Shown: positions 11,334 to 25,320 of the stretch, piece by piece
Layout: each line of letters starts with the position of its first letter
How positions within the stretch are numbered: the stretch's first letter is position 1
Program-made: the position numbers and the translations under genes
Assembly: GCA_964291675.2 (NCBI GenBank)
Contig: OZ219866.1
Span: 1,216,001 to 1,280,000, forward strand
Direction: 5' to 3'
Length of the DNA stretch: 64,000 bases
Source of the DNA: Alphaproteobacteria bacterium
GTDB lineage: Bacteria > Pseudomonadota > Alphaproteobacteria > MPNO01
The notes under the pieces: generated by a model
The model's database searches: none
The model's input: the letters and a program-made list of their open reading frames with translations, nothing else
What the model was told of the DNA's origin: nothing

Positions 11334-12121
11334 CGGTCCGCCTCGCCGGGCTTCTTCAGGGTGAGCTCGTGCAGCATCGCGTAGCGCAGCCAGTGATTGT
11401 AGGCCGTCGTCAGGCAGAACATGAAGCCATACGCCCCCGCCCGCCACCGGCCGCGCAGCACATAGTCCCGGAAGAAGAACCAGGGCAGGCCGAAATACAC
11501 TTTTAGCGCCACCGAGGCGCCACGCCGGCGGTCCAGGTGGCGGAAGCGGCGGAGCTCGTTGGCCGCCTGCTTGCGCGACAGGTGGGCGATGTCGTCGAAG
11601 GCATGATGCAGCAGCGGGCCGGCGAGCCGGCGCACCCTGAGCCCCTCGGGGATCTCGAACTGGTCCCAGGCGCCGTCGGCCGGGACGCGGATGCGGCGCC
11701 GGTCGTAGAGCTTGGCGCGCCTGGGCGCGCGGGCCCCGCGCCAGGCCCGGCCGGACGGGTCGACGAACAGCATCGGGAGCAGGCACACATCCGCAGCGGG
11801 CTCGCCGGCCGCGAAGAGCTCGCGGATCTCCCGCGCCAGCTCCTCCGTGACGACCTCGTCGGCATCGAGGTCGAGCAGCCAGTCGTGCCGGCAGGCGTCC
11901 TCGCCGACCCGCTTCTGGTGGCCGGAGCCCAGCCAGGGCTGCGCGACGACCCGCGCCCCGGCCCGCTCCGCCTCGGCGACCGTGGCGTCGGTCGATCCGG
12001 AATCGACCACCACCACCTCGCGCGCCACGAGAGCGGCGGCGGCGACGGTCGCGGCTATCTTCGCCGCCTCGTCGAGGGTGCGGATGTAGCAGGAGACCGG
12101 CGGGCGGGCGTCACGCGTCAT
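11330..12121 (-). CDS. Glycosyltransferase family 2 (WaaE/KdtX-like)
   Basis: VVDSGSTDAT and LDLDADE (DxD) motifs. Confidence 0.9.
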   Translation of the reverse strand: MTRDARPPVSCYIRTLDEAAKIAATVAAAALVAREVVVVDSGSTDATVAEAERAGARVVAQPWLGSGHQKRVGEDACRHDWLLDLDADEVVTEELAREIRELFAAGEPAADVCLLPMLFVDPSGRAWRGARAPRRAKLYDRRRIRVPADGAWDQFEIPEGLRVRRLAGPLLHHAFDDIAHLSRKQAANELRRFRHLDRRRGASVALKVYFGLPWFFFRDYVLRGRWRAGAYGFMFCLTTAYNHWLRYAMLHELTLKKPGEADR

Positions 12122-13847
12122 CGGCGAGTCGAGCGCGCAGCGCCGCCGTTGCCTCGGCGTCCACCGCGCGGCCGCCCGCGTCGGCCACCACGCCGTAGAC
12201 CTCGCGCATGGTCCGTTGCGAGACGATCCCGTCGCGCAGGTCGCGCAGCACGCTCGCCGGCGCGCGCTCGAGCGGGTCGCCCCAGCCGCCGCCGCCCGGC
12301 GATTGGGTGACGAAGCGCACCGGCCCGGTCGATTCCAGCCCGAACTTGGGCGCGCGCCGCGTCGTCCCGTCGGCGAAGCGCAGATGCATGTGGCCCGCCG
12401 CCCCGGCGCCGCCGCCGTTGACGCCATAGCCGGTCTCGTATTCCAGCCCCTCGCCGCGGAAGGAGTGCGTCGCGTCGGTCAGGATCTCGACCTCGTAATC
12501 GGCGCCGCTGCCGCCGCGCCAGCGTCCCGGCCCGGCGGCGTCGCAGCGGAACTCCTGGCGGTGGAACAGCACCGGGTAGAGCTGCTCGTAGACCTCGACA
12601 TTGGGCATGGTGAGCCCGCCGAGGGTGCAGACATGGCCGATCTGGTTGAACCCGTCGCGCCCGTCGACCGCGCCCGCGCCCGCCGCCGCCGCGCCGTGGT
12701 AGAACACGTAGCGGTCGCCGCTCGCCTCGCGTCCGACCGAGATGCCGAACACGTTCTTGGCCCAGCCGGCGCAGCCCCGCGCCGGGTCGGCCTTGGCCAG
12801 GGCCTTCCACACCGCGTGAATGATCTCGTGGGCGCAGAACACGGTGCACATGGTGGTCGGCGCGCCCTCCTCGGCGTTGACGATGGTCCCCTCCGGGGCG
12901 TGGATGTCGACGCAGCGGAAGGCGCCCTCGTTATGCGGCAAGGACGGGTCGAGGAAGGAGGCGAGCGCGGTGTAGACGGCCGAATGGGTGTTGCCGAGGG
13001 ACGAGTTCTTGAAGCCGCGGATCTGGTCGTCGCTGCCGGCGAAATCGATGGCGAGCGTGTCGCCCTCGATCGTCGCCCTGACCCGCACGGTCACGTCGCG
13101 CAGCTCGAAGCAGTCGTTGTCCGAGCGGTCCTCGGCCTCGTAGACCCCGTCCGGCATCTCGGCGATCTCGGCGCGGACGCAGCGGTCGGCATGGTCGAGC
13201 ACGCCGGTGAAATAGGCGAGCGCGGTCTCGCGGCCGAGCTCGTCGGCCAAGGAGGCCACGCGCTCCATGCCGATCCGGGTGGAGCCCAGCATGGCCCGCA
13301 GATCCCCGTCCAGCAGGTGCGGCGTCCGCGTATTCAGCATCAGCAGCTTCCACAAATCCTCGCGCATCCGGCCGGCCTCGACCAGGCGCAGCACCGGCAG
13401 GCGGATGCCCTCGTGGAACACTTCCGTGGCGGAGGGGTTGTAGGCCCCCGCCGCCCCGCCGCCGATGTCGGACTGGTGCGCCCGGTTGCAGGTGAGCCCG
13501 ACGAACGCGCCGCCGGCGAAGATCGGCCGCGCGATCACCCAGTCCGGCAGGTGGTTGCCGCCCGCCGCCCACGGGTCGTTGAGCAGGTAGACGTCGCCCG
13601 GCTCGATGGCGTCGCCGAAATCGCGCAGGATCGCGCGCACCCCGAACCCGCCGCTCCCGGTGTGGATTGGGATGCCGTCGGCCTGGCTGACGACCTCGCC
13701 GGTGGGCCCGGCGATGAAGCAGGAGAAGTCGTGCGCCTGGCTGAAGATCGGGCTGCGGGCGGTGCGGACCATCACCCAGCCCATCTGGTGCGAGATGTGG
13801 TCGAGCCGGTTCTGGGTCAGCGCCAGGATGACGGGGTCGAGGTCCAT
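12111..13847 (-). CDS. Hydantoinase B/oxoprolinase family protein
   Basis: RTARSP, LNDPWAAGGNHLPD, PGGGGWGDP. Confidence 0.93.
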   Translation of the reverse strand: MDLDPVILALTQNRLDHISHQMGWVMVRTARSPIFSQAHDFSCFIAGPTGEVVSQADGIPIHTGSGGFGVRAILRDFGDAIEPGDVYLLNDPWAAGGNHLPDWVIARPIFAGGAFVGLTCNRAHQSDIGGGAAGAYNPSATEVFHEGIRLPVLRLVEAGRMREDLWKLLMLNTRTPHLLDGDLRAMLGSTRIGMERVASLADELGRETALAYFTGVLDHADRCVRAEIAEMPDGVYEAEDRSDNDCFELRDVTVRVRATIEGDTLAIDFAGSDDQIRGFKNSSLGNTHSAVYTALASFLDPSLPHNEGAFRCVDIHAPEGTIVNAEEGAPTTMCTVFCAHEIIHAVWKALAKADPARGCAGWAKNVFGISVGREASGDRYVFYHGAAAAGAGAVDGRDGFNQIGHVCTLGGLTMPNVEVYEQLYPVLFHRQEFRCDAAGPGRWRGGSGADYEVEILTDATHSFRGEGLEYETGYGVNGGGAGAAGHMHLRFADGTTRRAPKFGLESTGPVRFVTQSPGGGGWGDPLERAPASVLRDLRDGIVSQRTMREVYGVVADAGGRAVDAEATAALRARLADDA

Positions 13848-15929
13848 CTACCCCTCCTCCCGGAAGGTTATCAGGTAGTTGTCGAGCCTATCCACCGCCG
13901 CGCGCTCGCCGGAGCCGACGACCACGGTGGTGGTCTCCTCCTCGATCACCGCCGGGCCGTCGACGAAATCGCCCGGGCGCATCGCCGCGCCGTCATGGAT
14001 CGCGGTCTCCAGGAAGCCGCCGGTCGCCTGGTCGTAGACCGGGCGGGTCGATGTCGGCGCGGCGCGGCGCTCGACCTCCTCGAAGACGACCTCGGCGAGC
14101 GGCGGCAGCTTGCCGATGCCCACCACCCGGAGGTTGGAGACGTTGATCCGCCCGCCCGGGTTGGTGTGGCCGTATTGCCGGTCGTACTCGGCCTCGAAGG
14201 CGGCGCGGATCTCGCCCGGCGAGGCGTCGGGGGAAAGCGCCACCCGCACGTCCCATTGCTGGCCCTCGTAATGCAGGTCGAGCTCGTGGCCGAAGCGTGT
14301 GTCCCCCGGCTCGAACCCCTCGCGCCGCAGCGCATCGGCCGCCTGCGCCTCCAGCGAAGCGTAGCCGTCCGCCAGCGCCGCGCCCACGCCGTCCGTGAGC
14401 TCGCGCATCGCCACCTGGACGAAGTCGCGCCTGACATCGGCGTGCTGCATGCCGATGGCGCAGAACGCGCCCGACTGGCGCGGCACGTAGACCGCGCGCG
14501 CGCCGAGCGCCCGGCCGACGCTCGCCCCGTGCATCGGCCCCGCCCCGCCGCAGGCCACGAGGGTGAAGCGCCCCGGGTTGTAGCCGCGCTGGATCGAGAT
14601 GCGCTCGACGGCGTGCAGCAGGTTCTGCTCGACGATGCGGATGATGCCGGCCGCGGCCTCGGCGAGCGGGATGCCGAGCGGCTCGGCGACCGCCGCCGCG
14701 ATCGCGCGCTCGGCGGCGTCGCGGTCGAGGGTGACCGAGCCCCCGGCATAGGGCCCGGGGCGCAGCCGGCCGAGCACCAGATGGGCGTCGGTGACGGTGG
14801 GCCTGATCCCGCCGAGCCCGTAGGCGGCGGGCCCCGGCCGCGCGCCGGCGCCCTCGGGCCCGGCATACATCATGCCGGCGCCGTCGATGCCGGCGATGGT
14901 GCCGCCGCCCGCGCCCACGGTGTGGATGTCGACCGAGGGCGTGACCAGGTCGTACTCGGCGACCGAGAGCGCATCCGTGATGGCGACCCGGCCCTCGTGC
15001 ATCAGCATCACGTCGCAGCTCGTGCCGCCGATCTCCATGCTGACCAGATTGCCCTCGCCGAGCCCGCTCGCCAGATGCTGGATCGCGCCGACGCCGGCCG
15101 ACGGGCCGGACAGCAGCAGATTCACCGGCTGCTCGATGAGCTGGTCGAGCGAGGCCGCGCCGCCGTTGCTCTGCAGCATCAGCAGCCGGGTCTTGAGCCC
15201 GAGCGCCGCCAGCCGGTCGGCGAGCGCCGCCAGGTAGTCGGCGACGCGCGGCATCACATAGGCGTTGACCGCGATGGTCGAGGCACGCTCGTACTCGCCC
15301 ATGATGGGGACGATGTCGGCCGAGACCGAGACCCAGCGGCAGAGCCCCGACCGGCGCACCACCTCGGCGGCGGCGTGCTCGTGCGCCGGGTTCTTGAAGC
15401 TGTTGATCAGGCAGATCGCGACCGAGTCCACGCCCTCGTCGCGGAAGGTCTCGATGGCGGCGCGCACATCGTCGAGCTCGACCGGCTCGATCTCGCCCCC
15501 GTCGGCGCCGATCCGCCCGCGCACCGGCAGGCGGAGGTAGCGCGGCACCAGCACCGGCGGGTAGGGGGTGCGGTGGTCCCACGGGTCCTTGCGCAGGCCC
15601 CTTCGGGCTTCGAGCGAGTCGCGGAAGCCGGCGGTGGTCAAGAGCCCGACCCGGCCGCCCTTGCCCTCCAGCAGCGTGTTGGTCGCCACCGTCGAGCCGT
15701 GCAGGAAGAACGCGCAGTCGCCGAGGAACCCGGCCAGGGTGAGGCCGAGTGCCGCGCACGCCTTCTCCAGCGCCGCGATCGCCCCCGCGCCCGGGTCGTC
15801 GGGCACGGACGGCACCTTGAACACCGCCGTCCGCCCGCCGGCATCGGCGACCACCAGGTCGGTGAACGTCCCCCCCACATCGACGCCCACGCGCCATGGC
15901 GGCGATTTCAGCCCGTGCGTGTCGTTCAT
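13848..15929 (-). CDS. Hydantoinase A/oxoprolinase family protein
   Basis: VDVGGTFTD, HGSTVATN, SGPSAG, GAGGG. Confidence 0.93.
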   Translation of the reverse strand: MNDTHGLKSPPWRVGVDVGGTFTDLVVADAGGRTAVFKVPSVPDDPGAGAIAALEKACAALGLTLAGFLGDCAFFLHGSTVATNTLLEGKGGRVGLLTTAGFRDSLEARRGLRKDPWDHRTPYPPVLVPRYLRLPVRGRIGADGGEIEPVELDDVRAAIETFRDEGVDSVAICLINSFKNPAHEHAAAEVVRRSGLCRWVSVSADIVPIMGEYERASTIAVNAYVMPRVADYLAALADRLAALGLKTRLLMLQSNGGAASLDQLIEQPVNLLLSGPSAGVGAIQHLASGLGEGNLVSMEIGGTSCDVMLMHEGRVAITDALSVAEYDLVTPSVDIHTVGAGGGTIAGIDGAGMMYAGPEGAGARPGPAAYGLGGIRPTVTDAHLVLGRLRPGPYAGGSVTLDRDAAERAIAAAVAEPLGIPLAEAAAGIIRIVEQNLLHAVERISIQRGYNPGRFTLVACGGAGPMHGASVGRALGARAVYVPRQSGAFCAIGMQHADVRRDFVQVAMRELTDGVGAALADGYASLEAQAADALRREGFEPGDTRFGHELDLHYEGQQWDVRVALSPDASPGEIRAAFEAEYDRQYGHTNPGGRINVSNLRVVGIGKLPPLAEVVFEEVERRAAPTSTRPVYDQATGGFLETAIHDGAAMRPGDFVDGPAVIEEETTTVVVGSGERAAVDRLDNYLITFREEG

Positions 15930-16256
15930 TGCGAAGCCCGTCAGTACACTGATTATCCGATTGGAAAGCCTAAACCGGACCCATCCGCGTCGCAAGCCAT
16001 GTGTGACTGAGACGGAAGAATGGAAAACATGAGGGGGCCATTCAACTGCCGTCTAGGCCTGAACAAATCCATTGACGGTCCCAGGACTTTCAAGGTACAG
16101 ACATCCTCACCGATCCATTTTCACCTAGTGAGGGGGAGCCTATAAAGCAACGCAAGATTGACCGAATTTACTTTTGTCTTCAAGCTAGAATTAGTGAAAG
16201 TCGTCTATCTCGTCTGGTGCAACAGTAAATGCACTAGCTTTTGTTGGTTTGTCAAA

Positions 16257-16286
16257 TTGAAGGGGCCTTCGCTGCCTGCGTATACT
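16257..16286 (+). promoter_or_regulatory. Putative sigma70 promoter of the AT-richer cassette
   Basis: TTGAAG-N18-TATACT about 30-40 bp upstream of the start codon. Confidence 0.4.
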
Positions 16287-17413
16287 TCAAGACTAAGGGT
16301 ACCGTCGTGATTGTGTGTGGCTGGACGTGAACATATCCTTCAGAACGCAACTTCTTGGTAGTGTTGCTGACCTATGTTCCGAATGCAACTTTGCTCTGGC
16401 AAGACCGGACATCTTAGTAGAGTTGCTCGTTAGACTTGCGCGTTACCGAGAAGAAGGCACGAAACTTGCGCCGCAGGTTTATTTGACTGACGATATAGAC
16501 TTTGTAATGAAACTGCTTCCCGGCGGTGAAAAAGTCCCTCTTTCGACTGCGGCATCAGACCCCAACGGAGTTGAAAAATTGCTTAAGTTGTGCGCTCCCT
16601 TAGCTGTCGGTGAATGGAGGATATTCGGCCAACAGATTGCCGACGAACTTACTTTCGGTGTTTTCCGTGGATCAAGCAATCCCATATCAGTTAGTGTGGA
16701 TGATACTTTGTTGTCAGAACAGACTGAAGCAACGGTTATCAAATTACATCAAGTTGCAGAAGAATGTGTGCAACTACGAAGTTCTAAAGGTCACTGTGAT
16801 CACGTGTTCTTTAATCATCGCAAAGTGGAAGATCCAACCCCTCTTCAGTATATTGATGAACTCATTAATAGCATTGTAAAGAAAGTAGAAGACGATGTCA
16901 GAGATGCCGCACACGGCTTTATTGCAAAGACTATACAATCTGCGTTGGTTCACTCTCATGGATGTCTTTTGGCTGTTACTAGTATGCCGAGACCCCCGCA
17001 AGTGCTAAGTCTTGACGCCGTGATATTGGATCGGCCGATCGATTTCCCTTCGTTGATCAGGCAATTGAAGAAAGATGATGATACTAGCACTTGGTTACAG
17101 CATATCGAAAGAGAGGCTCAGTTAGTTGAAGGAATGATCAATTGCGATGGAATTACATTGTTTGATCAGTATGGGAAGTTGCTTGCTTATCGTTGCTTCA
17201 TCCAATTGCCAAGACGAGTGGACGTAGGGGGAGGAGCCCGACGGCGGGCCTTTGAAACTCTAAAGGGGCGACTAGGCAAAGGTCTCTCAGCCGTAAGCGT
17301 TCGGGGTAGCCGCCCTTGTCAGGGGTAGGTTCGGGACCGCAGTCTCTGTTCCGGGATTTGGCGGCCGATAGTGTCCATTATCGGCTAATGGACACTATCG
17401 TTGGGGGGCTGCG

Positions 17414-17761
17414 GTGGCGCGTCGTGTACGCCGGTTCTGGTCGGACGATGAGAAGCGCCGGATTGTTGCGCAGAGCTACGCGCCCGGGGTTTCGGTGTCG
17501 GTTGTGGCGCGTCGCTACGACGTGAACTCCAACCTGATCTTCACTTGGCGGCGCGATCCCCGCTACAGGCCGGCGGCGGATGGCGAGGGTGCGCCGTCCT
17601 TCCTGGCGGTGGAGGTGGTGCCCGATGCGCCGCCGTCAGAGCCGTCTGCGGCATCGGAGGGTCGGATCGAGATTGCGTTGTCGAGCGGCCACCGGGTGAG
17701 CGCGATCGGGGCGTTCGACGTGGACGCGCTGTGTCGCGTGGTGCGGGCGCTGGGCGGATGA
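17414..17761 (+). CDS. tnpA: IS66 TnpA (HTH)
   Basis: [13 protein letters not shown]...[19 protein letters not shown]. Confidence 0.92.
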
Positions 17762-18105
17762 TCCCGGTCCCGTCCTCGACCCGGGTATGGCTGGCCTGCG
17801 GGGTGACCGACATGCGCAAGGGGTTCCCGGGGCTTGCGGCGCAGGCGGAGCGGGTGTTGAAGGCGGATCCGCATTGCGGCCATCTCTTCATCTACCGGGG
17901 CCGTCGGGGCGACCTGATCAAGATGATCTGGTGGGACGGCCAGGGAGCGTGCCTGTTCTCGAAGCGTCTTGAGCGCGGCCGTTTCGTGTGGCCGTCGGCG
18001 TCGGAGGGCAAGGTTTCGGTGACGCCGGCGCAGCTGTCGATGCTGTTGGAGGGGATCGACTGGCGGGCGCCGGTTCGCACCTGGCGGCCTTTGGCGGCGG
18101 GATGA
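17758..18105 (+). CDS. tnpB: IS66 accessory protein TnpB
   Basis: [28 protein letters not shown]. Confidence 0.95.
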
Positions 18106-19526
18106 TTCATCGTTTATATACAATAGGTTGACTCCTATCCGGGCTTCCCTTTGGCGGCCTTTTCCTGTAGGCTGCGGTCATGCTCGAAGAGGCGCATTCC
18201 CTGCCTGACGACATCGCCGCACTGAAGGCGATGGTGCTGTCCTCGCGGGCCGAGGTGGCGGCGCGGGACGCCGAGTTGCGCAACCGTGACCTTCTGATCG
18301 AGAAGCTCAAGCACCAGCTTGCGGGTCTGCGCCGCCAGCGCTTCGGCGCCACTTCGGAGGCCCTCGATCAGCTTGAGCTCGGGCTGGAGGACGAGGAGAT
18401 CGCGCGCTCGGCCGAGACGTTTGCCGAGCCAGCCCCGGCGGCAAAGAGACAGCCCAAGCGCCGTCCCTTGCCGGACCACCTGCCGCGCGAGGAGACGCAT
18501 CTCGCGCCTTCAGGCGATCGCTGCGCGGACTGCGGCGGTCGCCTCAAGCGTCTCGGCGAGGATGTGACCGAGGAGCTGGAGTACATCCCCGGCCGCTTCG
18601 TGGTGAAGCGCATCGTGCGCCCGCGCCTGGCCTGCGGCGGCTGTGAGACGTTCCACCAAGCGCCGCTGCCGTCGCGGCCGATCGAGCGCGGCCGTCCGGG
18701 CCCGGGCCTTCTGGCGCATGTGCTGGTCTCGAAGTACTGCGATCACCTGCCGCTCTACCGTCAGTCGCGTATCTTCGCCCGCGATGGCGTCGATCTCGAC
18801 CGCTCGACGCTGGCCGGCTGGGTGGGCAAGGCGACGGCGCTGCTGGAGCCCCTGGCCGATGCCGTCGGGCGCCATGTTCTGGGCGGCCAAGCCCTGTTCG
18901 CCGACGACACCCCGGTCAAGTTGCTGGCGCCGGGGACCGGCAAGACGGCGACGGGTCGGGCCTGGACCTATGTCCGCGACGAGCGTCCGTGGAAGGGCGA
19001 GGCATCGCCGGCGGCGTGGTATCGCTTCTCGGCCGACCGCAAGGCGGCGCATCCGAAGAGCCATCTCGCGGGCTACGCCGGCTGGATGCACTCGGACGGC
19101 TATGCCGGCTTCGGCGCACTGGCGCGCGCGGGGCCGGTCCGCGAGGTCGCCTGCCTGGCCCATGTGCGGCGCAAGTTCTTCGACGTCCACGCCGCTCAGG
19201 GCTCGGCGGTCGCCGCCGAGGCGCTGGAACGGATCGCCGCGCTCTACGCCATCGAGAAGGAGGTCCGCGGGCAGCCCCCAGAGCGCCGCGTCGCGATCCG
19301 CCGCGCCAAGGCCGCGCCGCACCTCGATGAGTTCGAGCGCTGGCTGCAAACGCAACTGCCGAAGCTCTCCGCCAAGACCCCGCTGGCGGCGGCGATCCGC
19401 CATGCGCTGACCCGGCTGAAGCGCCTGCGGCCCTATATCGAGCACGGCTTCCTCGAGATCGACAACAACCCGGCCGAGCGCGCGATGCGCCCGATCGCGA
19501 CGATGGAGTCATTCTGCACCCCTTCT

Positions 19527-21599
19527 TCAAGTGTCTGAAAACATTGACATCTGATCCCGACATGAAGCGCGACGCGGGTCTTTCCGCAGTGCCAGGGCGT
19601 TGGCGACCCGCTCGGAATGGAGGTCTTTGGCCCTGATTTGCCAGGGCGCTCCGGGAACGAGTTGCGTGGCAGGTAGCGTTCCATCCTCGATCAGGCGCCT
19701 GAGGGTATGGCTGGTCGTGCCCAACTCTTTCGCCGCCTCGGTCATGGTGCGCCAGTCGCCCTGCTTGTCCGCTGAGAGGTAGCCGTCGATCCCGTTCACA
19801 CGCCGGATCGATCCGACCCGGTGAGCGGTCCAACTCTTGTGCTGCCCGGTCCGCATACCCATCCGGTTGAGCGACGCGGCGATATGTTCGTCCGACCATC
19901 GCCCGGCCATGCTGCGTATCACTGCCAGAGCTTCCTCGGGCGTTCGGCAGCCATGTTCGCCGCTCTTGGGCTTGCGGACCCTGAGACGGGAATGACGGCC
20001 ACCCATCCAGTGGATCGTCAGCAGGACGTCACGCGCCTCTTCGTCGACATCGACGATTATGCCCATGATCAGGGTGCGCACGAGACGCTGGCGGGCGCGC
20101 ATGCTCACCCCGGGCGCGTTCCAGGCGGCCTTCAGGTCGTCGGCAAGTCCGGCCAGGTCGGGGACAGTGGGCCGCGGCGACGGCATCGCGCCCAGCCTTG
20201 CTTCGCACGCCTGGACGCGTCGAAGCGCTGCCTCCCAACTCTTCTCCAGCTCGGCGGCGATCAGCCGGTTGTCCGGATCGCAGGCGGCGTAGCGCCGCTC
20301 GGCGAGCGCCGCCTCGTAGCGGGCTTGCTGCAGATCCAGCTCGGCCACCCGTTGCTGTTCGGAAAGACCCTCCGCGTTCATCCGCTCGGCTTCCAACGAG
20401 GCTTCCACCGCCATGGGCTCCACGACGCGGAGGATCTCATCGGCAACGGCCGCATCCACACGCGCACCCCCGAACCCCAGACAGGGCTCTAGCTCGAGCT
20501 GGAGGTGTCGCCGATTGCAGCGGTAGACAGGATTGCCGGGCGTGCGACCGGAATAGGCAACGCTCATCGTGCGTCCGCAGCGTGCGCAACTGAGGAGGCC
20601 GCCAAGAAGCGCCCGCCCGCCGCGCCCCGACTTCGTGCCCCCCGCCTTGCCGAAGGCATTGGCGGCGAGCTGCGCCTGGTTGCGCTCGAACTCCGGCCAG
20701 TCGATGTAGCCCTCGTGATGGTCCTTCAGCACGACCTCCCATTCCGCCATCGGCTTGCGGTGTCCATAGCTCTTGCGCACGCGCCCGTCGACGATCTCGG
20801 TCCGCCGCTCGCTTTTGCCGTAAGCGTAGACCCCGGCGTAGAAAGGGTTCTTCAACACCGAAATTACGTTGCGATAGCGGATCGGCGTCCAGTCGAAGGA
20901 GACCATTGTCCTGCCATCCGACGGGCGTGGGAAGCAAAGCTTCTGCCCGCTCAGCGCCAGCAACACCTGCCGCGCGCTGCCAAGCTCGCGAAACCGGGCG
21001 AATACCTGACGGATCGCTTCCTGAACCCGAATGTCGGGGTCCAGCCCCAGCCCGGCCTCGGGATGCCAGACGTAGCCGATCGGGACGCTGATGCGAAGCT
21101 CGCCGCGGGCGGCCTTGGAGCGGGCGGCCTCGAACATCCGAGCGCGCAGAACGCCGAGTTCGAACTCGCTGATCTGGCCCTTCATGCCGAGCAGCAGACG
21201 ATCGTTGGGGTGGCGAGGATCGTAGATGCCATCCTGGTCGATGACGCGTGCCTCGACGAGACCGCAGAGCTCGAGAAGATGGTGCCAGTCCCGGCCGTTG
21301 CGAGAGACCCGCGAAGCCTCGAAACAAAGCACGGCTCCAACGTCCCCGGCGCACAGCCAGGCGACGAGGCGCTCGAAACCGGGCCGCGCAACGGCACCGT
21401 CCGCCGACAGGCCCTGATCGTCGTCGATGACTTCGACCCGGGCAAAGCCGTGCCCGCGCGCCACATCGACGAGATCGTATTGGCGGCGCTGGCTCTCCAG
21501 ATTGTTCCGCATCTGCTGGGGCGTGGACTGACGGACATAGACCACGGCCTTGCGCGTCAACACCGATCGCGGCAACGCTTCAGCGACGCCCATCGTCAT
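19527..21599 (-). CDS. Large serine recombinase (resolvase, recombinase, Zn-ribbon, coiled coil, C-terminal HTH); start 21599 or 21593
   Basis: YVRQST catalytic Ser motif, RPGF, SRVSRN, CARCG...YRC, C-terminal excisionase-like HTH (TMTEAAKELG). Confidence 0.95.
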   Translation of the reverse strand: MTMGVAEALPRSVLTRKAVVYVRQSTPQQMRNNLESQRRQYDLVDVARGHGFARVEVIDDDQGLSADGAVARPGFERLVAWLCAGDVGAVLCFEASRVSRNGRDWHHLLELCGLVEARVIDQDGIYDPRHPNDRLLLGMKGQISEFELGVLRARMFEAARSKAARGELRISVPIGYVWHPEAGLGLDPDIRVQEAIRQVFARFRELGSARQVLLALSGQKLCFPRPSDGRTMVSFDWTPIRYRNVISVLKNPFYAGVYAYGKSERRTEIVDGRVRKSYGHRKPMAEWEVVLKDHHEGYIDWPEFERNQAQLAANAFGKAGGTKSGRGGRALLGGLLSCARCGRTMSVAYSGRTPGNPVYRCNRRHLQLELEPCLGFGGARVDAAVADEILRVVEPMAVEASLEAERMNAEGLSEQQRVAELDLQQARYEAALAERRYAACDPDNRLIAAELEKSWEAALRRVQACEARLGAMPSPRPTVPDLAGLADDLKAAWNAPGVSMRARQRLVRTLIMGIIVDVDEEARDVLLTIHWMGGRHSRLRVRKPKSGEHGCRTPEEALAVIRSMAGRWSDEHIAASLNRMGMRTGQHKSWTAHRVGSIRRVNGIDGYLSADKQGDWRTMTEAAKELGTTSHTLRRLIEDGTLPATQLVPGAPWQIRAKDLHSERVANALALRKDPRRASCRDQMSMFSDT

Positions 21600-21765
21600 C
21601 CTCCTTCACCGGGGCGGTCGCCGCTTCCAGAAGCAACCCGGCCACTGCGCTCACCACCGCGTCTCGTTCCTCCGAGCTCAGACCGCGCAGCGTCGGTGCG
21701 TCGAGCGGCATGCCGAGCTGTCGGGGTTCTCTCGGCGGTCGCGCTGTTACAGGCAAAGACTTCAT
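21580..21765 (-). CDS. Small accessory protein of the recombinase element (61 aa)
   Basis: GGAGAGGAG RBS then ATG; ...LSSEERDAVVSAVAGLLLEAA helical peptide overlapping the LSR start. Confidence 0.65.
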   Translation of the reverse strand: MKSLPVTARPPREPRQLGMPLDAPTLRGLSSEERDAVVSAVAGLLLEAATAPVKEDDDGRR

Positions 21766-22075
21766 CGCGCTCCTCTCCGCTAACGGTTCCGTCATCGGGG
21801 GAGCTATGTCGAAAACCTTGGCCGACGAGAAGCTCGTGAAGTGCGGCGAGGGCGGCCGGGGAGGCACGCGGCGCGCCGATCTCCATGCCGGCGCATGACG
21901 CAGGATCAAGCATCCAGGCGGGTATCTTGATGATCAGCCCCGGCTCTACCTCGACGGAGGCCATGAGGCCGTCTGCACGCTGTTCGATAACTTCAGGGCG
22001 TACTCGCCGACCGAACAGTGCGTGCCAGCGGTAGTGGATGACGCAATCCTGCCCGATATGGGCAGAATGAATGCG
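21596..22075 (-). CDS. Accessory protein body whose 5' end (ATG at 19512) lies at the opposite end of the element; 166 aa in the circular form
   Basis: Open from the right att junction (RIHSAHIGQDCVIHYRWHALFG...IPAWMLD) to a TGA overlapping the LSR ATG; no start codon upstream of the junction in the integrated state. Confidence 0.7.
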   Translation of the reverse strand, partial: RIHSAHIGQDCVIHYRWHALFGRRVRPEVIEQRADGLMASVEVEPGLIIKIPAWMLDPASCAGMEIGAPRASPAALAALHELLVGQGFRHSSPDDGTVSGEERDEVFACNSATAERTPTARHAARRTDAARSELGGTRRGGERSGRVASGSGDRPGEGG

Positions 22076-22389
22076 CGATCGCCTTGGGCCGGAAGAACTA
22101 TCTCTTCATGGGCTCAGCCAGCGGCGGCCGGGCCGCCGCCATCGCCTACACCTTGATCGAGACCGCAAGGCTCAACCACGTCGACCCGCAGGCTTGGCTT
22201 GCCCAGGTTCTCGAGCGCATCCCCGACTACAAGATCAACCGCGTCGAAGAACTGCTGCCCTGGAACTGAACGCCGACCGCAGATCAGGGCCAAATCGCCT
22301 GAACGCCCAGGGCGGCTCCGCCCAACGCTTACTCTCAGCCGCCTATATTCGATCCGAAGATGGGTGGACAGACTTCGGGAGCACTGCCC

Positions 22390-23712
22390 GTGGCTAATAC
22401 AATGAAACTATGGCAGCCGGACAAGCAACAATTAGTGCCCAAGGATGCACGAACGGCAAAGTCCATTGCTAAGTGCGCTAGGCAACTTTCCCAGCGAGAC
22501 AAGGGACAGATCGTATCAGCATTCAAGTCCGGCCACTACGATATGGGGATCAATTTCCTCTGGCTTAGAACTATCGCAGCGCTGAAACGGGAATTGGCGA
22601 CCGTAGGGATAGGACTGTTAGGAGAAATGCTTGGGCGAGTTGGGGTAAATGAAGACGACGATATCGAGGATCTTCTAACGCCACGTGAAACGATTCGCTT
22701 GGCTGGGGAATTAGGCGCCATCTCTCAGACCGAAGCTATGCGATTGCGACAGACGCATGAATTGGTTGTCCATTTTAACCAACTCTCTTTTGAGGAGGAT
22801 CCACTCGAAGAAATCAACGAATCGGAAGCAATCACATCCCTTAGGGCATGTGTTTCAGCGGTGCTCGCGAAGCCAAAAATAGAGGTCGCTAAGACTTTTG
22901 TTGAATTCAGGGAATCTCTAGAGACCGAGGCATTTGGGTCGGATGAAGAAAAGATCAATTTGCTAGTGGGTTCTCCATACTTCTTTTGGAAGTTAACCAT
23001 CGACATCCTGATGAACTCCGCAAAGGATTCGTCCGGCGTTAAGTTGGAACATTGCTTGGCTAATTTAAACGTTATATTGCCTAAGTTGTGGCCAAATTTG
23101 AAAGATGCCGAGAAGTGGCGCGTCGGACGCACGTATGCTGAAGTGCATTCAGAAGGAAAGTCAACTTCATCGAGCGGCCTAAAGCAGGCTCTCATGAAGG
23201 TGCAGGGATTTGACTTTGTGCCTGAGAACCTTCGCAGTGATACCTTTGTCAAAGCCGCTGAGGCAGTGGTGCGTGCCCATGACGGAATGAATAATTTCTA
23301 TAATGAAGGCGCACCAGTTAGAAATCTTGCCCAACTCGGAACTTCAATTCCGCCGCCCGCTTTGCCAGCATGTATGACGGCGTTGTTGGCAGTATACGTC
23401 GGAAATCAATATGGTTATTCTTTCGAAGCAGCTCCCGTGGCAGAGAGGATGCTGTCTGGGATTAGTGATGATAGGTGGCGCTATTATTTGAACCAAGTGT
23501 TGCCCAACGATACTAGGATACTCAATAAACTAGCATTGCATTCCAAGCCGCGCGGGCGATGGATGGATTTAGTTGATCGGAATGCCCTTGGCGAATGCCG
23601 AGTTAATGACCGTCGGGTGGGTAAGATGCTCGATGCTGCAGGGCAAAAGAACGAGAACGAGATTGGTCAGACCGCGAAAAAACTCTTGGGACGATATTAC
23701 AAAAAAGCGTGA
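22390..23712 (+). CDS. Hypothetical helical protein, possibly HEPN/DUF4145-like N-terminus
   Basis: About 440-aa AT-richer ORF; GGGAG RBS then GTG overlapping the DAC-like stop; SAFKSGHYDMGINFLW...LKREL and RLRQTHELVVH motifs. Confidence 0.75.
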   Translation: MANTMKLWQPDKQQLVPKDARTAKSIAKCARQLSQRDKGQIVSAFKSGHYDMGINFLWLRTIAALKRELATVGIGLLGEMLGRVGVNEDDDIEDLLTPRETIRLAGELGAISQTEAMRLRQTHELVVHFNQLSFEEDPLEEINESEAITSLRACVSAVLAKPKIEVAKTFVEFRESLETEAFGSDEEKINLLVGSPYFFWKLTIDILMNSAKDSSGVKLEHCLANLNVILPKLWPNLKDAEKWRVGRTYAEVHSEGKSTSSSGLKQALMKVQGFDFVPENLRSDTFVKAAEAVVRAHDGMNNFYNEGAPVRNLAQLGTSIPPPALPACMTALLAVYVGNQYGYSFEAAPVAERMLSGISDDRWRYYLNQVLPNDTRILNKLALHSKPRGRWMDLVDRNALGECRVNDRRVGKMLDAAGQKNENEIGQTAKKLLGRYYKKA

Positions 23713-24096
23713 TTCCAATTGGCGGAGTGAGGCCCGAGATTGGCGTTCCGGACCGACTCCACTACCACCGGCTTCGCGTTGGTGGACACTTCAGGCACGG
23801 AACAGCGTTCGGCGAACACTTCGCAATCGAGGTTAACGCCGACCACTCATTGGCACTCAGCGAAGGGGCCTTTTTCTTCATCACGCTTCGCGCGACGTGG
23901 CAGGCGTATCTGAACGCCTTGACGCTGGTGCCGGGCGGACCGGCTACGATGTGGCGGCCCGCAGTTCAAGCGCAATGGAACAGGCGGCGCCGCCCCGGGC
24001 GCGGCATATCGCCGCGTGCGGCCGATTGCGCATTCCCGGGCTGTGCGAACGAGCCATTGTCACGGCGACCGACCGCCAACGGGAGCCGTAGCGACG

Positions 24097-24603
24097 ATGG
24101 AAGTCTTCACTGTTCTTGCCGGGGCAGGCGACTGCTTCATCCGCCACAGCGTGACGGCGTTCCGGCCGTCCGCCGCGCCGCCGCGCCGCGCCTGCCCGGC
24201 CGGGCGCGCCGGCGACACGATCCTGGGCCTGGCCTTCGTCGCCGGCGGCGGCGGGGTGCGGGTGGCGGGCCGCGAGATCCGCATCGCCGGGCTCGATGCG
24301 CCGGGAGGCGACCGGCTCGACCTCGGAAGGCGGGCGATCGGCGCGCTGATGCGCGAGATCGGCGGCAAGCCCGTCCGCGCCGCGGTCGAGGGCAGGGACC
24401 GGCACGGCCGCCTGCTCGCCAGCGTGAGCCGCGACGGCCGGGACATCGGCGAATGGCTGGTCCGGGAAGGCCACGCGCGCGCCGCCCGCGGCGGCCGCTA
24501 TGCGCGCGCCGAGCGGGAGGCGCGGGAAGCCGGGCGCGGCATGTGGGCGGACGCCCGCGATATCGACCCCGGGGACCGCTGCCGCCGCAAGGGGAGCGGC
24601 TGA
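24097..24603 (+). CDS. Thermonuclease (SNase)-like protein, degenerate active site
   Basis: IRIAGLDAP, DRHGRLLA, LVREGHA, RGMW; DGDT and DAPE acidic residues missing. Confidence 0.7.
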   Translation: MEVFTVLAGAGDCFIRHSVTAFRPSAAPPRRACPAGRAGDTILGLAFVAGGGGVRVAGREIRIAGLDAPGGDRLDLGRRAIGALMREIGGKPVRAAVEGRDRHGRLLASVSRDGRDIGEWLVREGHARAARGGRYARAEREAREAGRGMWADARDIDPGDRCRRKGSG

Positions 24604-24616
24604 GCCCGGCGTTGCC

Positions 24617-24901
24617 TCAAACCAGGTCGCCCGGCTCCACCTCCAGCGCCCGCGCGATCGCGGCGATGGTGCCGAGCGACCCCGCCCGCTTGCCGGTCTC
24701 GATCTGCGACAGGTAGACGAGGTTGATGCCGGCGGCCCCGGCCAGCCGCCTCTGGGTCATGCCGCGATAGAGGCGGTACGCCCGGATCGGGCTCTCGCCG
24801 GCCAACAGGCGGTCGGCGATCTCGGCCGGGAACAGCTCGCCGCCCTTGGCCCTGGCGCGGTCGTAGAGCGCCTCGTCGGGAATGACGTGTCCTGTCGTCA
24901 T
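24617..24901 (-). CDS. XRE-family HTH protein (HigA-like, orphan)
   Basis: [30 protein letters not shown]. Confidence 0.85.
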
Positions 24902-25320
24902 GGCGAACTCCTCGCTTGCCGCTCGCCCGCCCCTCCGTTTCGTCGCGGTCGGCCCCCGCCGGCCATGACGGGGAGGGCGACCTGTTCCAGCACTACCGCC
25001 GTGCCGCTGGCGCACACGATGAGCATGCTCCCCTGGCCCCCGAGCAACTCGTCGTCGAGGTCGACGCCGACGACGGCGTTGGCGCCGCGTGCGGTAGCCT
25101 CGTCGGTCATCTCGCGGAGTGCCGCGTCGCACGCCCTCCTGAACACTTTCTCGTAGGCACGCGACTGGCCGCCGACCAAGACACGCAGCCCGGCGGAGAA
25201 GTCGCGGAATACGTTGGCGCCCATCACCGCCTCGCCGGAGACGACGCCGACATAGGCGACGATGCGCTCACCCTCCAGGGTCGGCGTGGTGGAGACGATC
25301 ACGCGGCTGCCCCCTGCCAT
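24898..25320 (-). CDS. YbjQ/UPF0145 family protein
   Basis: VSTTPTLEG...[12 protein letters not shown]...GANAVVGV...SGTAV. Confidence 0.9.

Follow-up and report, generated by a model that had tools for sequence, protein, structure and literature searches.

What is the function of a short, AT-rich pair of genes that is found, cut by a transposon, in an otherwise GC-rich alphaproteobacterial genome? The pair lies in a stretch of 64,000 nucleotides from Alphaproteobacteria bacterium (assembly GCA_964291675.2, contig OZ219866.1, positions 1,216,001 to 1,280,000 of the forward strand), referred to here as the window. Its two genes, gene 1 and gene 2, form a 2.4-kb cassette with a joint GC content of 0.475 vs 0.694 for the remaining window, and an IS66-family element splits gene 1 eighteen codons ahead of its stop. 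With a probability of about 0.5, the cassette is an IS66-inactivated copy of a widespread, unnamed and mobile two-gene module that would act in defence by nucleotide signalling, in the manner of the cyclic-oligonucleotide-based antiphage signalling system (CBASS), by means of a domain related to the diadenylate cyclases (DAC). An earlier account of this DNA made from the letters alone (the sequence-only reading) described the locus correctly; its interpretation is partly supported by the work presented here.

Both genes can be restored by leaving the element out. Read across IS66 by coordinates alone, 326 codons on one side and 18 on the other give a gene 1 protein of 344 amino acids, or of 340 if an alternative GTG start at 16327 is used; relatives usually have 339-341. 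The 18-residue tail agrees with the way in which intact relatives end, and the closest of these has the same terminal I-R-S-E-D-G-W-T-D-F. Gene 2 and the stop of gene 1 have 8 nt in common, and gene 2 relatives align from residue 1 of the GTG at 22390. GC content, taken in 500-nt steps, is 0.44-0.48 at 16000-16999 and at 22500-23499, and 0.70-0.77 on both sides; the AT-rich island is bounded by a hydantoinase/oxoprolinase operon (12111-15995, minus strand) and by a GC-rich region that begins near 23750. The sequence-only reading had reported two AT-richer genes with an 8-bp overlap once IS66 is removed, a restored gene 1 of about 344 residues with HGCLLAV, DGI, GARRRA and SEDG, and a helical gene 2 product of about 440 residues. 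Composition, coordinates, translation and the gene 2 structure model agree with all of these, as does the 8-bp duplication TCTCAGCC on the two sides of the element.

The copy in the window is, from its sequence, dead. It should be inactive because IS66 severs the strand that carries S-E-D-G from the rest of the DAC-like domain, and the module as a whole could not work because the element also separates gene 2 from its promoter. The state of the locus, a broken gene 1 beside an intact gene 2, does not discriminate between mechanisms, since IS66 has a polar effect on gene 2 as well. As far as this one genome is concerned the finding is a modest one, its copy being dead.

The C-terminal half of gene 1 is predicted to have the fold of a diadenylate cyclase, in a strongly divergent form. 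Because the window protein is broken, its closest intact relative, P0002 (70% identical), was modelled in its place from an alignment of 61 rows, and the structural results for gene 1 are those of that protein. The model has a pLDDT of 90.2 and a predicted template modelling score (pTM) of 0.83. Compared with the PDB by Foldseek, it returned DisA, CdaA, CdaM/DacM, DacA or 2fb5 for all 41 matches listed, with probabilities of 0.87-1.00 (mostly 1.00), target-normalised template modelling (TM) scores of up to 0.60 and a best E value of 7.4e-4. Domain-sized matches extend over 144-185 columns at 10-16% identity.

Sequence profiles reach the same fold faintly. The profile A3, built from 129 members of the family, finds the DAC structure 2fb5 at E 0.095, beside a spurious match at E 0.08, and aligns H-G-x-L-I-A-V, D-G-I and G-G-A-R-x-R-A of the family with H-G-A-L-I-V-V, D-G-A and G-T-R-H-R-A of the structure. 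Pfam DAC is the only family to match more than 2 of the 129 members; it matches 10 of them, all below threshold, with a best E value of 0.0023. For example, the gene 1 relative at locus L026 covers positions 3-104 of the 119 in the Pfam profile and scores 13.7 bits vs a cut-off of 27. Neighbours of gene 1 in the ESM Atlas carry DAC and DACNH, which is taken as a lead only. The window protein itself has no match in Pfam, NCBIfam or PADLOC, and none at E <= 10 for Pfam DAC; phmmer against PDB sequences gave nothing relevant, and neither did profiles of the close relatives of gene 1 (A1) and gene 2 (A2) against the same sequences.

The residues typical of a DAC active site are the most conserved positions across the gene 1 family. 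Counted over the 129 sequences in P0002 numbering, the D-G motif is present as D274 in 129 and G275 in 128, R-x-R as R305 in 129 and R307 in 123, and S-x-D-G as S327 in 127, D329 in 126 and G330 in 128. The threonine that precedes RHR in known cyclases is replaced by alanine in 116. A live active site in the domain is plausible on this pattern. The modelled fold and these residues together bear out the DisA_N-like C-terminal domain of the sequence-only reading.

The N-terminal domain of gene 1, about 185 residues of mixed alpha/beta structure in the P0002 model, is also well conserved. Glutamates E42 and E43, in the motif Y-R-E-E-G, and G111 are found in all 129 sequences, and K87 and W97 in 128 each. 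It has no Pfam match and no detectable relative. The domain is probably sensory, and it is possibly DACNH-like, a suggestion drawn from the ESM Atlas neighbours and the order of secondary-structure elements. An internal duplication, in which the N-terminal domain would be a degenerate DAC or DACNH copy, was set aside when hhalign of the two halves gave a probability of <1%.

The family to which gene 1 belongs is large and lacks annotation. An initial search returned 83 relatives, many of them 335-345 residues long; precomputed Pfam domains are absent from all of them, and those that have a name are 'hypothetical'. Against 1.84 billion representative sequences the gene 1 profile finds 750 at E <= 1e-3 and 413 at E <= 1e-30, or about 750 representative clusters at 50% identity. 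Some relatives are longer (P0241, P0318 and others), and their extra regions contain no Pfam domain. The sequence-only reading held that the IS66 split hides gene 1 from automatic annotation. That explanation fails, as intact relatives are also 'hypothetical protein' entries free of Pfam domains; gene 1 is unannotated because no family model exists.

Gene 1 rarely occurs without gene 2. A scan of one genome per species yielded 38 gene 1 loci, in Pseudomonadota, Clostridia, Acidobacteriota, Bacteroidota, Planctomycetota, Armatimonadota, Verrucomicrobiota, Binatia and others. A gene 2 relative lies directly 3' of gene 1 in 36 of them, the exceptions being one contig edge and locus L037, and no other open reading frame (ORF) cluster is present in more than 2 of the 38. 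Of the 36 pairs, 29 show an overlap of 1-11 nt between the gene 1 stop and the nearest plausible gene 2 start, and in the others the two are no more than 13 nt apart. Distance matrices of the two proteins are correlated with r = 0.948 over 32 loci, a value reached in 0 of 2000 permutations (Mantel test). The sequence evidence thus supports a conserved and translationally coupled pair, and the pairing proposed for the window by the sequence-only reading extends to its relatives. About 29 contigs of the same size, counted by eye, are common to the match lists of gene 1 and gene 2, an indirect hint that close gene 2 relatives may in turn be accompanied by gene 1.

The cassette also looks horizontally acquired and mobile, judging from composition and surroundings. 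The AT content of the pair exceeds that of its flanks in 35 of 36 loci, the mean difference being 8.7 points and that in the window 22 points. With the defence neighbours described below, this agrees with the foreign look ascribed to the window copy at the outset. No match was found in 50,697 phage records. A few pairs appear to have decayed: in one locus (L020) gene 2 is broken into two ORFs (147 and 113 amino acids), in another (L030) gene 1 is likewise in two pieces (86 and 265), and in a third (L038) gene 1 is shortened to 254.

Gene 2 is a helical protein with many relatives and no family model. The search with gene 2 gave 492 matches, and among the 120 listed the identity is 54-83% over the full length; the matches listed have no precomputed Pfam domain and the named ones are all 'hypothetical'. 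The window protein has no match in Pfam, NCBIfam or PADLOC, and no Pfam family recurs among 54 relatives. Its structure model (pLDDT 82.6, pTM 0.60) consists of 24 helices with no strand of 3 or more residues. The ESM Atlas offered AF_1680 (PF27235) as a lead, for which no relevant literature was found.

The ancestry of gene 2 is indicated by a solitary sister family. Using tblastn against plasmids, 2 close and 28 distant matches of gene 2 were detected, and eleven of the distant ones cover at least 83% of the protein at 21-24% identity. Both close matches have gene 1 upstream. The distant relatives that were inspected stand without gene 1, singly and in defence-like contexts; in Streptomyces the protein encoded 5' of such a solitary gene proved not to be a gene 1 relative. 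The sister family (about 470 amino acids; proteins P0352-P0471) comprises at least 1654 clusters at 90% identity from bacteria and archaea, all 'hypothetical' and without a Pfam model. Examples are found on a Clostridium perfringens plasmid (L041) and at L040, L042 and L043. The alignment of gene 2 (A2) with this family (A5) by hhalign spans 374 columns, the motif helix among them, with a probability of 99.6% and an E value of 6e-25.

Members of the sister family have an invariant R-N-x5-H and match two HEPN-type Pfam families below threshold, Abi_C in 7 of 43 and DUF4145 in 3 of 43; their commonest weak match, Mur_ligase_M (10 of 43), is taken as spurious. In a joint alignment whose register hhalign reproduces, the R and H of R-N-x5-H are present in 18 of 18 solitary proteins and in 0 of 23 cyclase-paired ones. 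Gene 2 has other invariant residues, R118 and H128. An R118-x4-H123 with the spacing of the HEPN motif Rx4-6H can be read in the window copy, but it is poorly conserved: position 123 is H in 32 of 54 relatives and Y in 20. The HEPN/DUF4145-like start assigned to gene 2 in the sequence-only reading is therefore not seen in gene 2 itself, where no match was found, and may hold only by descent, through the R-N-x5-H of the sister family. Gene 2 is at best HEPN-derived and not a canonical HEPN protein, the HEPN identity of the sister being itself judged by motif and sub-threshold matches. The sister looks like an unrecognised single-protein Abi-type family. Gene 2 and the sister family each carry a large extra C-terminal domain without known relatives, and have in common the C-terminal motifs A-H-x-G-x-N-N-F-Y-N-E, G-N-x-Y-G and R-W.

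The neighbours of the pair are suggestive of defence. The nearest ORFs of 100 amino acids or more, two at most on each side (110 flanking ORFs in all), were searched with PADLOC; as a raw count, 13 of the 38 loci have a strong match among them. These neighbours are HmaB, AbiJ, a DRT-associated SLATT protein, type I restriction-modification (RM; two loci), PD-Lambda-2, PDC-S04, HEC-01 with PDC-S14, DrmD, Lamassu LmuB with LmuC, PDC-M30, Dsr2, and a CBASS-type phospholipase with PD-T4-4. Pfam families in the flanks include HipA, Fic, PIN, BrnA, Schlafen/AlbA_2, integrases and an IS200-like gene.

Several loci can be described individually. In two (L014 and L017) the pair is embedded in a type I RM operon, between hsdS and an N-terminal fragment of HsdM, and in L014 a Schlafen/AlbA_2 protein is also encoded 3' of it. 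On plasmid pAtCG920 of Agrobacterium tumefaciens (L044) the pair is divergent from, and beside, a complete-looking type I CBASS operon (cyclase E 8.6e-120, patatin phospholipase E 1e-154), with genes for a pre-toxin TG domain protein and an ankyrin protein on the other side. On a plasmid of Vibrio sp. dhg (L039; NZ_CP028945.1, pair at 140265-142602) the pair is intact and adjoins a type II RM system and IS3; another intact pair is that of Massilia (L006). An HTH_3 regulator gene precedes it and a 204-amino-acid ORF, which has no Pfam or PADLOC match, shares 1 nt with the stop of gene 2; these two may be locus-specific accessory genes.

Locus L037 has a different partner. The gene 1 relative there, recognised by hhalign at 99.9%, retains D-G, R-x-R and S-x-D-G but not E-E, and lies directly 3' of a CapV-like patatin, the two open frames overlapping and gene 2 being absent. 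The two genes are inserted after truB-pnp, beside a PD-T4-4_A-like ATPase. From its sequence L037 is a possible two-gene system of patatin and DAC-like protein. Such a swap of effectors is the pattern expected of a signal-making cyclase, and the locus thus fits a signal maker.

These observations can be combined in a scheme for intact copies. Infection would activate gene 1 through its N-terminal domain, and the DAC-like domain would condense nucleoside triphosphates into a cyclic or linear (di)nucleotide signal. Gene 2, a predicted soluble helical protein that probably stems from an HEPN-type abortive-infection family and keeps a highly conserved, pocket-like set of C-terminal motifs, would receive this nucleotide and stop phage growth, probably by abortive infection. 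The fold, the conserved catalytic-type residues, the strict pairing with co-inheritance, and the composition and surroundings of a mobile defence gene are seen in the sequences and models; the activity of gene 1, its product, the identity of the phage sensor and the action of gene 2 are inferred, by analogy with CBASS.

A number of results weigh against this scheme. Only a single Foldseek match to a DAC structure reaches E <= 0.001, and the query-normalised TM scores of these matches are 0.24-0.29, low because only half of the gene 1 protein aligns. Gene 1 stays below every curated threshold of Pfam, NCBIfam and PADLOC. The third residue of DGA is I in 107 of the 129 relatives, V in 16 and A in one, and the middle residue of RHR is R in 61, S in 20, K in 16, T in 14 and L in 6, with histidine outside the five commonest. 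The RRR of gene 1, to which the sequence-only reading attached possible meaning, is consequently a trait of the window copy and not of the family. The departures from DGA and RHR do not exclude activity, because an active defence cyclase, PanS, uses DGF and GGR, according to a preprint (10.64898/2026.08.10.743927). Common vertical inheritance of the two genes would be enough to produce the Mantel correlation. Gene 2 lacks the catalytic R and H of HEPN proteins and any recognisable nucleotide-binding or effector domain. Foldseek of its model against the PDB gave generic ARM/importin-like repeats (TM 0.2-0.3, E >= 0.015) with no HEPN structure among the 50 ranks listed, and the viral structure library BFVD gave generic helical repeats only. 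The C-terminal motifs need not be a receptor for the gene 1 product, because they are shared by solitary, cyclase-free relatives. Finally, in 25 of the 38 loci PADLOC gave no strong match up to two ORFs away, and at some loci the pair directly adjoins housekeeping genes (such as gyrA, pnp and a tRNA synthetase).

The direction of the signal could be the opposite of that proposed. In Panoptes and PanDA/Panoptoo the cyclase is a guard or decoy; by analogy, the gene 1 nucleotide would constitutively silence a toxic gene 2, which phage sponges or nucleases would release. The characterised two-gene DAC defence systems all work in this way, as described in two preprints (10.64898/2026.08.10.743927; 10.64898/2026.08.10.743972), and the tight translational coupling of the two genes and the CBASS operon next to the pair on the Agrobacterium plasmid would suit a guard. 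Gene 1, on the other hand, bears a sizeable N-terminal domain that is conserved and includes invariant residues, whereas guard cyclases are minimal (about 150 amino acids), gene 2 is not a 2TM beta-barrel, and CBASS is seen at one plasmid locus, plus a CBASS-type patatin at one of the 38 genome loci, vs about 50% reported for PanDA. A guard role is accordingly considered unlikely. The same low probability is given to a reversal of roles, in which gene 2 would be the sensor and gene 1 the output, through ATP consumption or a toxic nucleotide, or in which the DAC-like domain would be a nucleotide-binding switch in a complex of the toxin-antitoxin kind. This would account for the loss of R-N-x5-H exactly where a cyclase partner appears, for the C-terminal motifs that gene 2 has in common with solitary relatives, and for the overlapping genes and the lack of a third gene as candidate effector. 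It agrees less well with L037, where pairing with a classical signal-activated patatin effector is a better fit to a signal maker; in addition, DAC enzymes are not known to act as bulk ATP-depleting effectors.

The pair may also have no immune function at all, and serve instead as a maintenance or addiction module of mobile elements, or as a nucleotide-signalling pair of stress physiology that travels in variable regions. The loci without a defence neighbour, several of them beside metabolic or housekeeping genes, are what this would predict, and neither the phage records nor the PADLOC models gave a match. An AT-rich signature and a patchy spread over many phyla are, by contrast, typical of defence genes, and the two hsdS-hsdM embeddings and the Lamassu, Dsr2, DrmD, AbiJ and CBASS neighbours also speak for immunity, so that this explanation is held to be slightly less probable than either of the preceding two. 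Nucleotide-signalling defence, with gene 1 as signal maker and gene 2 as effector, is preferred. A bolder form of it, held to be less likely than not, can be stated: the pair would be a third, undescribed DAC-based class of immunity, in which a sensor-fused divergent DAC enzyme makes a nucleotide that is possibly not cyclic di-AMP, and in which the reader, formerly an HEPN RNase, dropped its RNase residues on gaining the cyclase. If so, the sister family would be a very large, unrecognised single-protein HEPN abortive-infection family that shares the C-terminal sensor domain.

The wider interest of the cassette comes from its relatives. The gene 1 family is large, unannotated and timely, and the work also flags the very large unannotated solitary family. 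If the pair is a defence system, gene 2 would connect DAC signalling with HEPN/Abi proteins. The pair poses questions as to the product of a DAC fold with DG[IV] and GGAR-x-R, the ligand of the E-E domain, and how an HEPN-derived protein acts without its dyad.

The features of the locus are collected in Table 1. The interrupting element can be assigned to the IS66 family from its tnpA-tnpB-tnpC order, terminal inverted repeats and 8-bp target duplication; its ORFs match HTH_Tnp_1, TnpB_IS66, DDE_Tnp_IS66, zf-IS66, LZ_Tnp_IS66 and DDE_Tnp_IS66_C in Pfam. A search of plasmids with it gave only distant IS66 copies. Within tnpC lies a second insert with a serine recombinase gene, absent from the sequence-only reading, and both of its junctions carry similar short sequences (ATGCGC..GATCGC). 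Upstream of gene 1, a promoter consensus scan found one site vs 0.3 expected in shuffled sequence. An inverted repeat around the cassette (I14; 20 nt, 80% complementary) is taken as chance, being one among 51 such pairs. On the 3' side of the cassette (23709-25320) the window contains GC-rich, overlapping ORFs.

Table 1. Coordinates of the cassette, of the element that interrupts it and of neighbouring features in the window, with selected loci elsewhere
Feature	Position	Strand	Remarks
AT-rich leader	15996-16314		5' of gene 1
Promoter-like site	16257-16286	+	TTGAAG, 18-nt spacer, TATACT; consensus match only; ~30 nt 5' of gene 1
Gene 1, 5' part	16315-17292	+	326 codons; ends exactly at a codon boundary
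Gene 1, N-terminal domain	16315-16869	+	~residues 1-185
Gene 1, DAC-like domain, 5' part	16870-17292	+	H-G at codons 215-216
Gene 1, D-G-I	17146-17154	+	codons 278-280
Gene 1, G-G-A-R-R-R	17230-17247	+	codons 306-311
Target-site duplication, left copy	17285-17292		TCTCAGCC; perfect 8-bp direct repeat
IS66-family element	17293-22332	+	terminal inverted repeats, Pfam families
IS66 inverted repeats	17293-17316, 22309-22332		24 nt, 88% complementary, starting GTAAGCG
tnpA	17414-17761	+	
tnpB	17758-18105	+	
tnpC	18180 to ~19499, then 22084-22269	+	broken by nested insert
Nested insert in tnpC	19500-22083 (approximate)	-	~2.6 kb; tnpC frame breaks after ..RPIA, resumes LGRKNYLF
Large serine recombinase	19527-21599	-	690 aa; Resolvase, Recombinase, Zn_ribbon_recom, HTH_17
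ORF in nested insert	21596-21964	-	122 aa; no Pfam match
Target-site duplication, right copy	22333-22340		identical to left copy
Gene 1, 3' part	22341-22397	+	18 codons and stop; carries S-E-D-G
Gene 1, S331	22353-22355	+	
Gene 1, D333	22359-22361	+	
Gene 2	22390-23712	+	GTG start; intact; 440 aa
Gene 2, R118	22741-22743		invariant
Gene 2, H128	22771-22773		invariant
Gene 2, A-H-D-G-M-N-N-F-Y-N-E	23275-23307	+	C-terminal motif
Gene 2, G-N-x-Y-G	23401-23415	+	C-terminal motif
Staphylococcal-nuclease-like ORF	24016-24603	+	
HTH_3 ORF	24617-25132	-	
YbjQ-like ORF	24898-25320	-	
Pair in type I RM operon	L014, 3606-12185		
Pair in type I RM operon	L017, 6556-10859		
Patatin and gene 1 relative	L037, 6937-8915		
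Pair on Vibrio sp. dhg plasmid	L039, 483-3839		
Solitary sister gene	L041, 4899-6317		Clostridium perfringens plasmid
Pair on plasmid pAtCG920	L044, 1740-6326		Agrobacterium tumefaciens

Galperin reportedly counted 22 DAC families in 2023. A role in phage defence was demonstrated for DAC domains no earlier than 2025-2026, and in two forms: the minimal PanS, and DS-2C/CdaG inside CBASS. If the cassette serves defence, it would add a third DAC architecture that is invisible to current family models and present in many phyla. Literature searches on DACNH, on HEPN with DisA or diadenylate cyclase, and on the accessions of relatives found no paper that names the pair, in main texts as distinct from supplements and extended data. 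One DAC preprint states that its extended data show DAC domain organisations 'yet to be described', which may include the gene 1 family.

PanDA/Panoptoo consists of PanS, a minimal DAC of about 150 amino acids, and PanE, a 2TM-beta protein (10.64898/2026.08.10.743927; 10.64898/2026.08.10.743972). The window cassette resembles it as a two-gene DAC-fold module that occurs in defence contexts, is AT-richer than its host and has motifs that depart from DGA and RHR, DGF and GGR in PanS vs DG[IV] and GGAR-x-R in gene 1. In contrast to PanS, which has no extra domain, gene 1 has 340-344 amino acids with an N-terminal domain of about 185, and unlike the membrane beta-barrel PanE, gene 2 is predicted to be soluble, all-helical and HEPN-derived.

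CBASS-DAC, or DS-2, contains DS-2C/CdaG, a DACNG-DACNH-DAC protein of 550-575 amino acids, together with a cGAS enzyme and a patatin phospholipase, and is an abortive-infection signalling system (PMC13092281; PMC13069673). The likeness is that of a DAC-fold protein with N-terminal non-catalytic domain(s), and it extends to the two loci where a gene 1 relative follows a CapV-like patatin (L037) or the pair stands beside a CBASS cyclase and patatin (L044). Unlike DS-2C, which is detected by the Pfam/InterPro models DAC, DACNG and DACNH, gene 1 has only about 340 residues and is detected by none, and in place of cGAS and patatin its partner is gene 2 in 36 of 38 loci. Measured against CBASS, only two genes are conserved, with no CD-NTase gene as a regular member of the operon, and there is no DACNG or DACNH match among the families listed (best 25 of 47).

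Gene 1 resembles the housekeeping enzymes DisA, CdaA, CdaS and CdaM in how its catalytic domain is folded and in where D-G, R-x-R and S-x-[DE]-G are placed. It differs from them in the low identity already given, in the variable residue at the histidine of RHR and in its N-terminal domain; the pair is sporadic and horizontally spread, and gene 1 is coupled to gene 2. For the Pfam family PF02457, the fold is found in the P0002 model, while a match at the gathering score and the RHR motif are both lacking. Gene 2 can be compared with HEPN proteins of the Abi type (Abi_C and DUF4145; AbiJ; ApeA) through its sister family, with R-N-x5-H and weak Abi_C and DUF4145 matches; it differs from them in having no HEPN-clan match, no HEPN structure among the fold matches listed, and neither R nor H in the columns of the motif. 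Since the pair falls outside PanDA, DS-2, the curated DAC family and HEPN alike, it is filed under none of them. Its way of working would be closest to that of a cyclase-effector pair, and the most fitting description is a DAC-based nucleotide-signalling defence variant without a family name.

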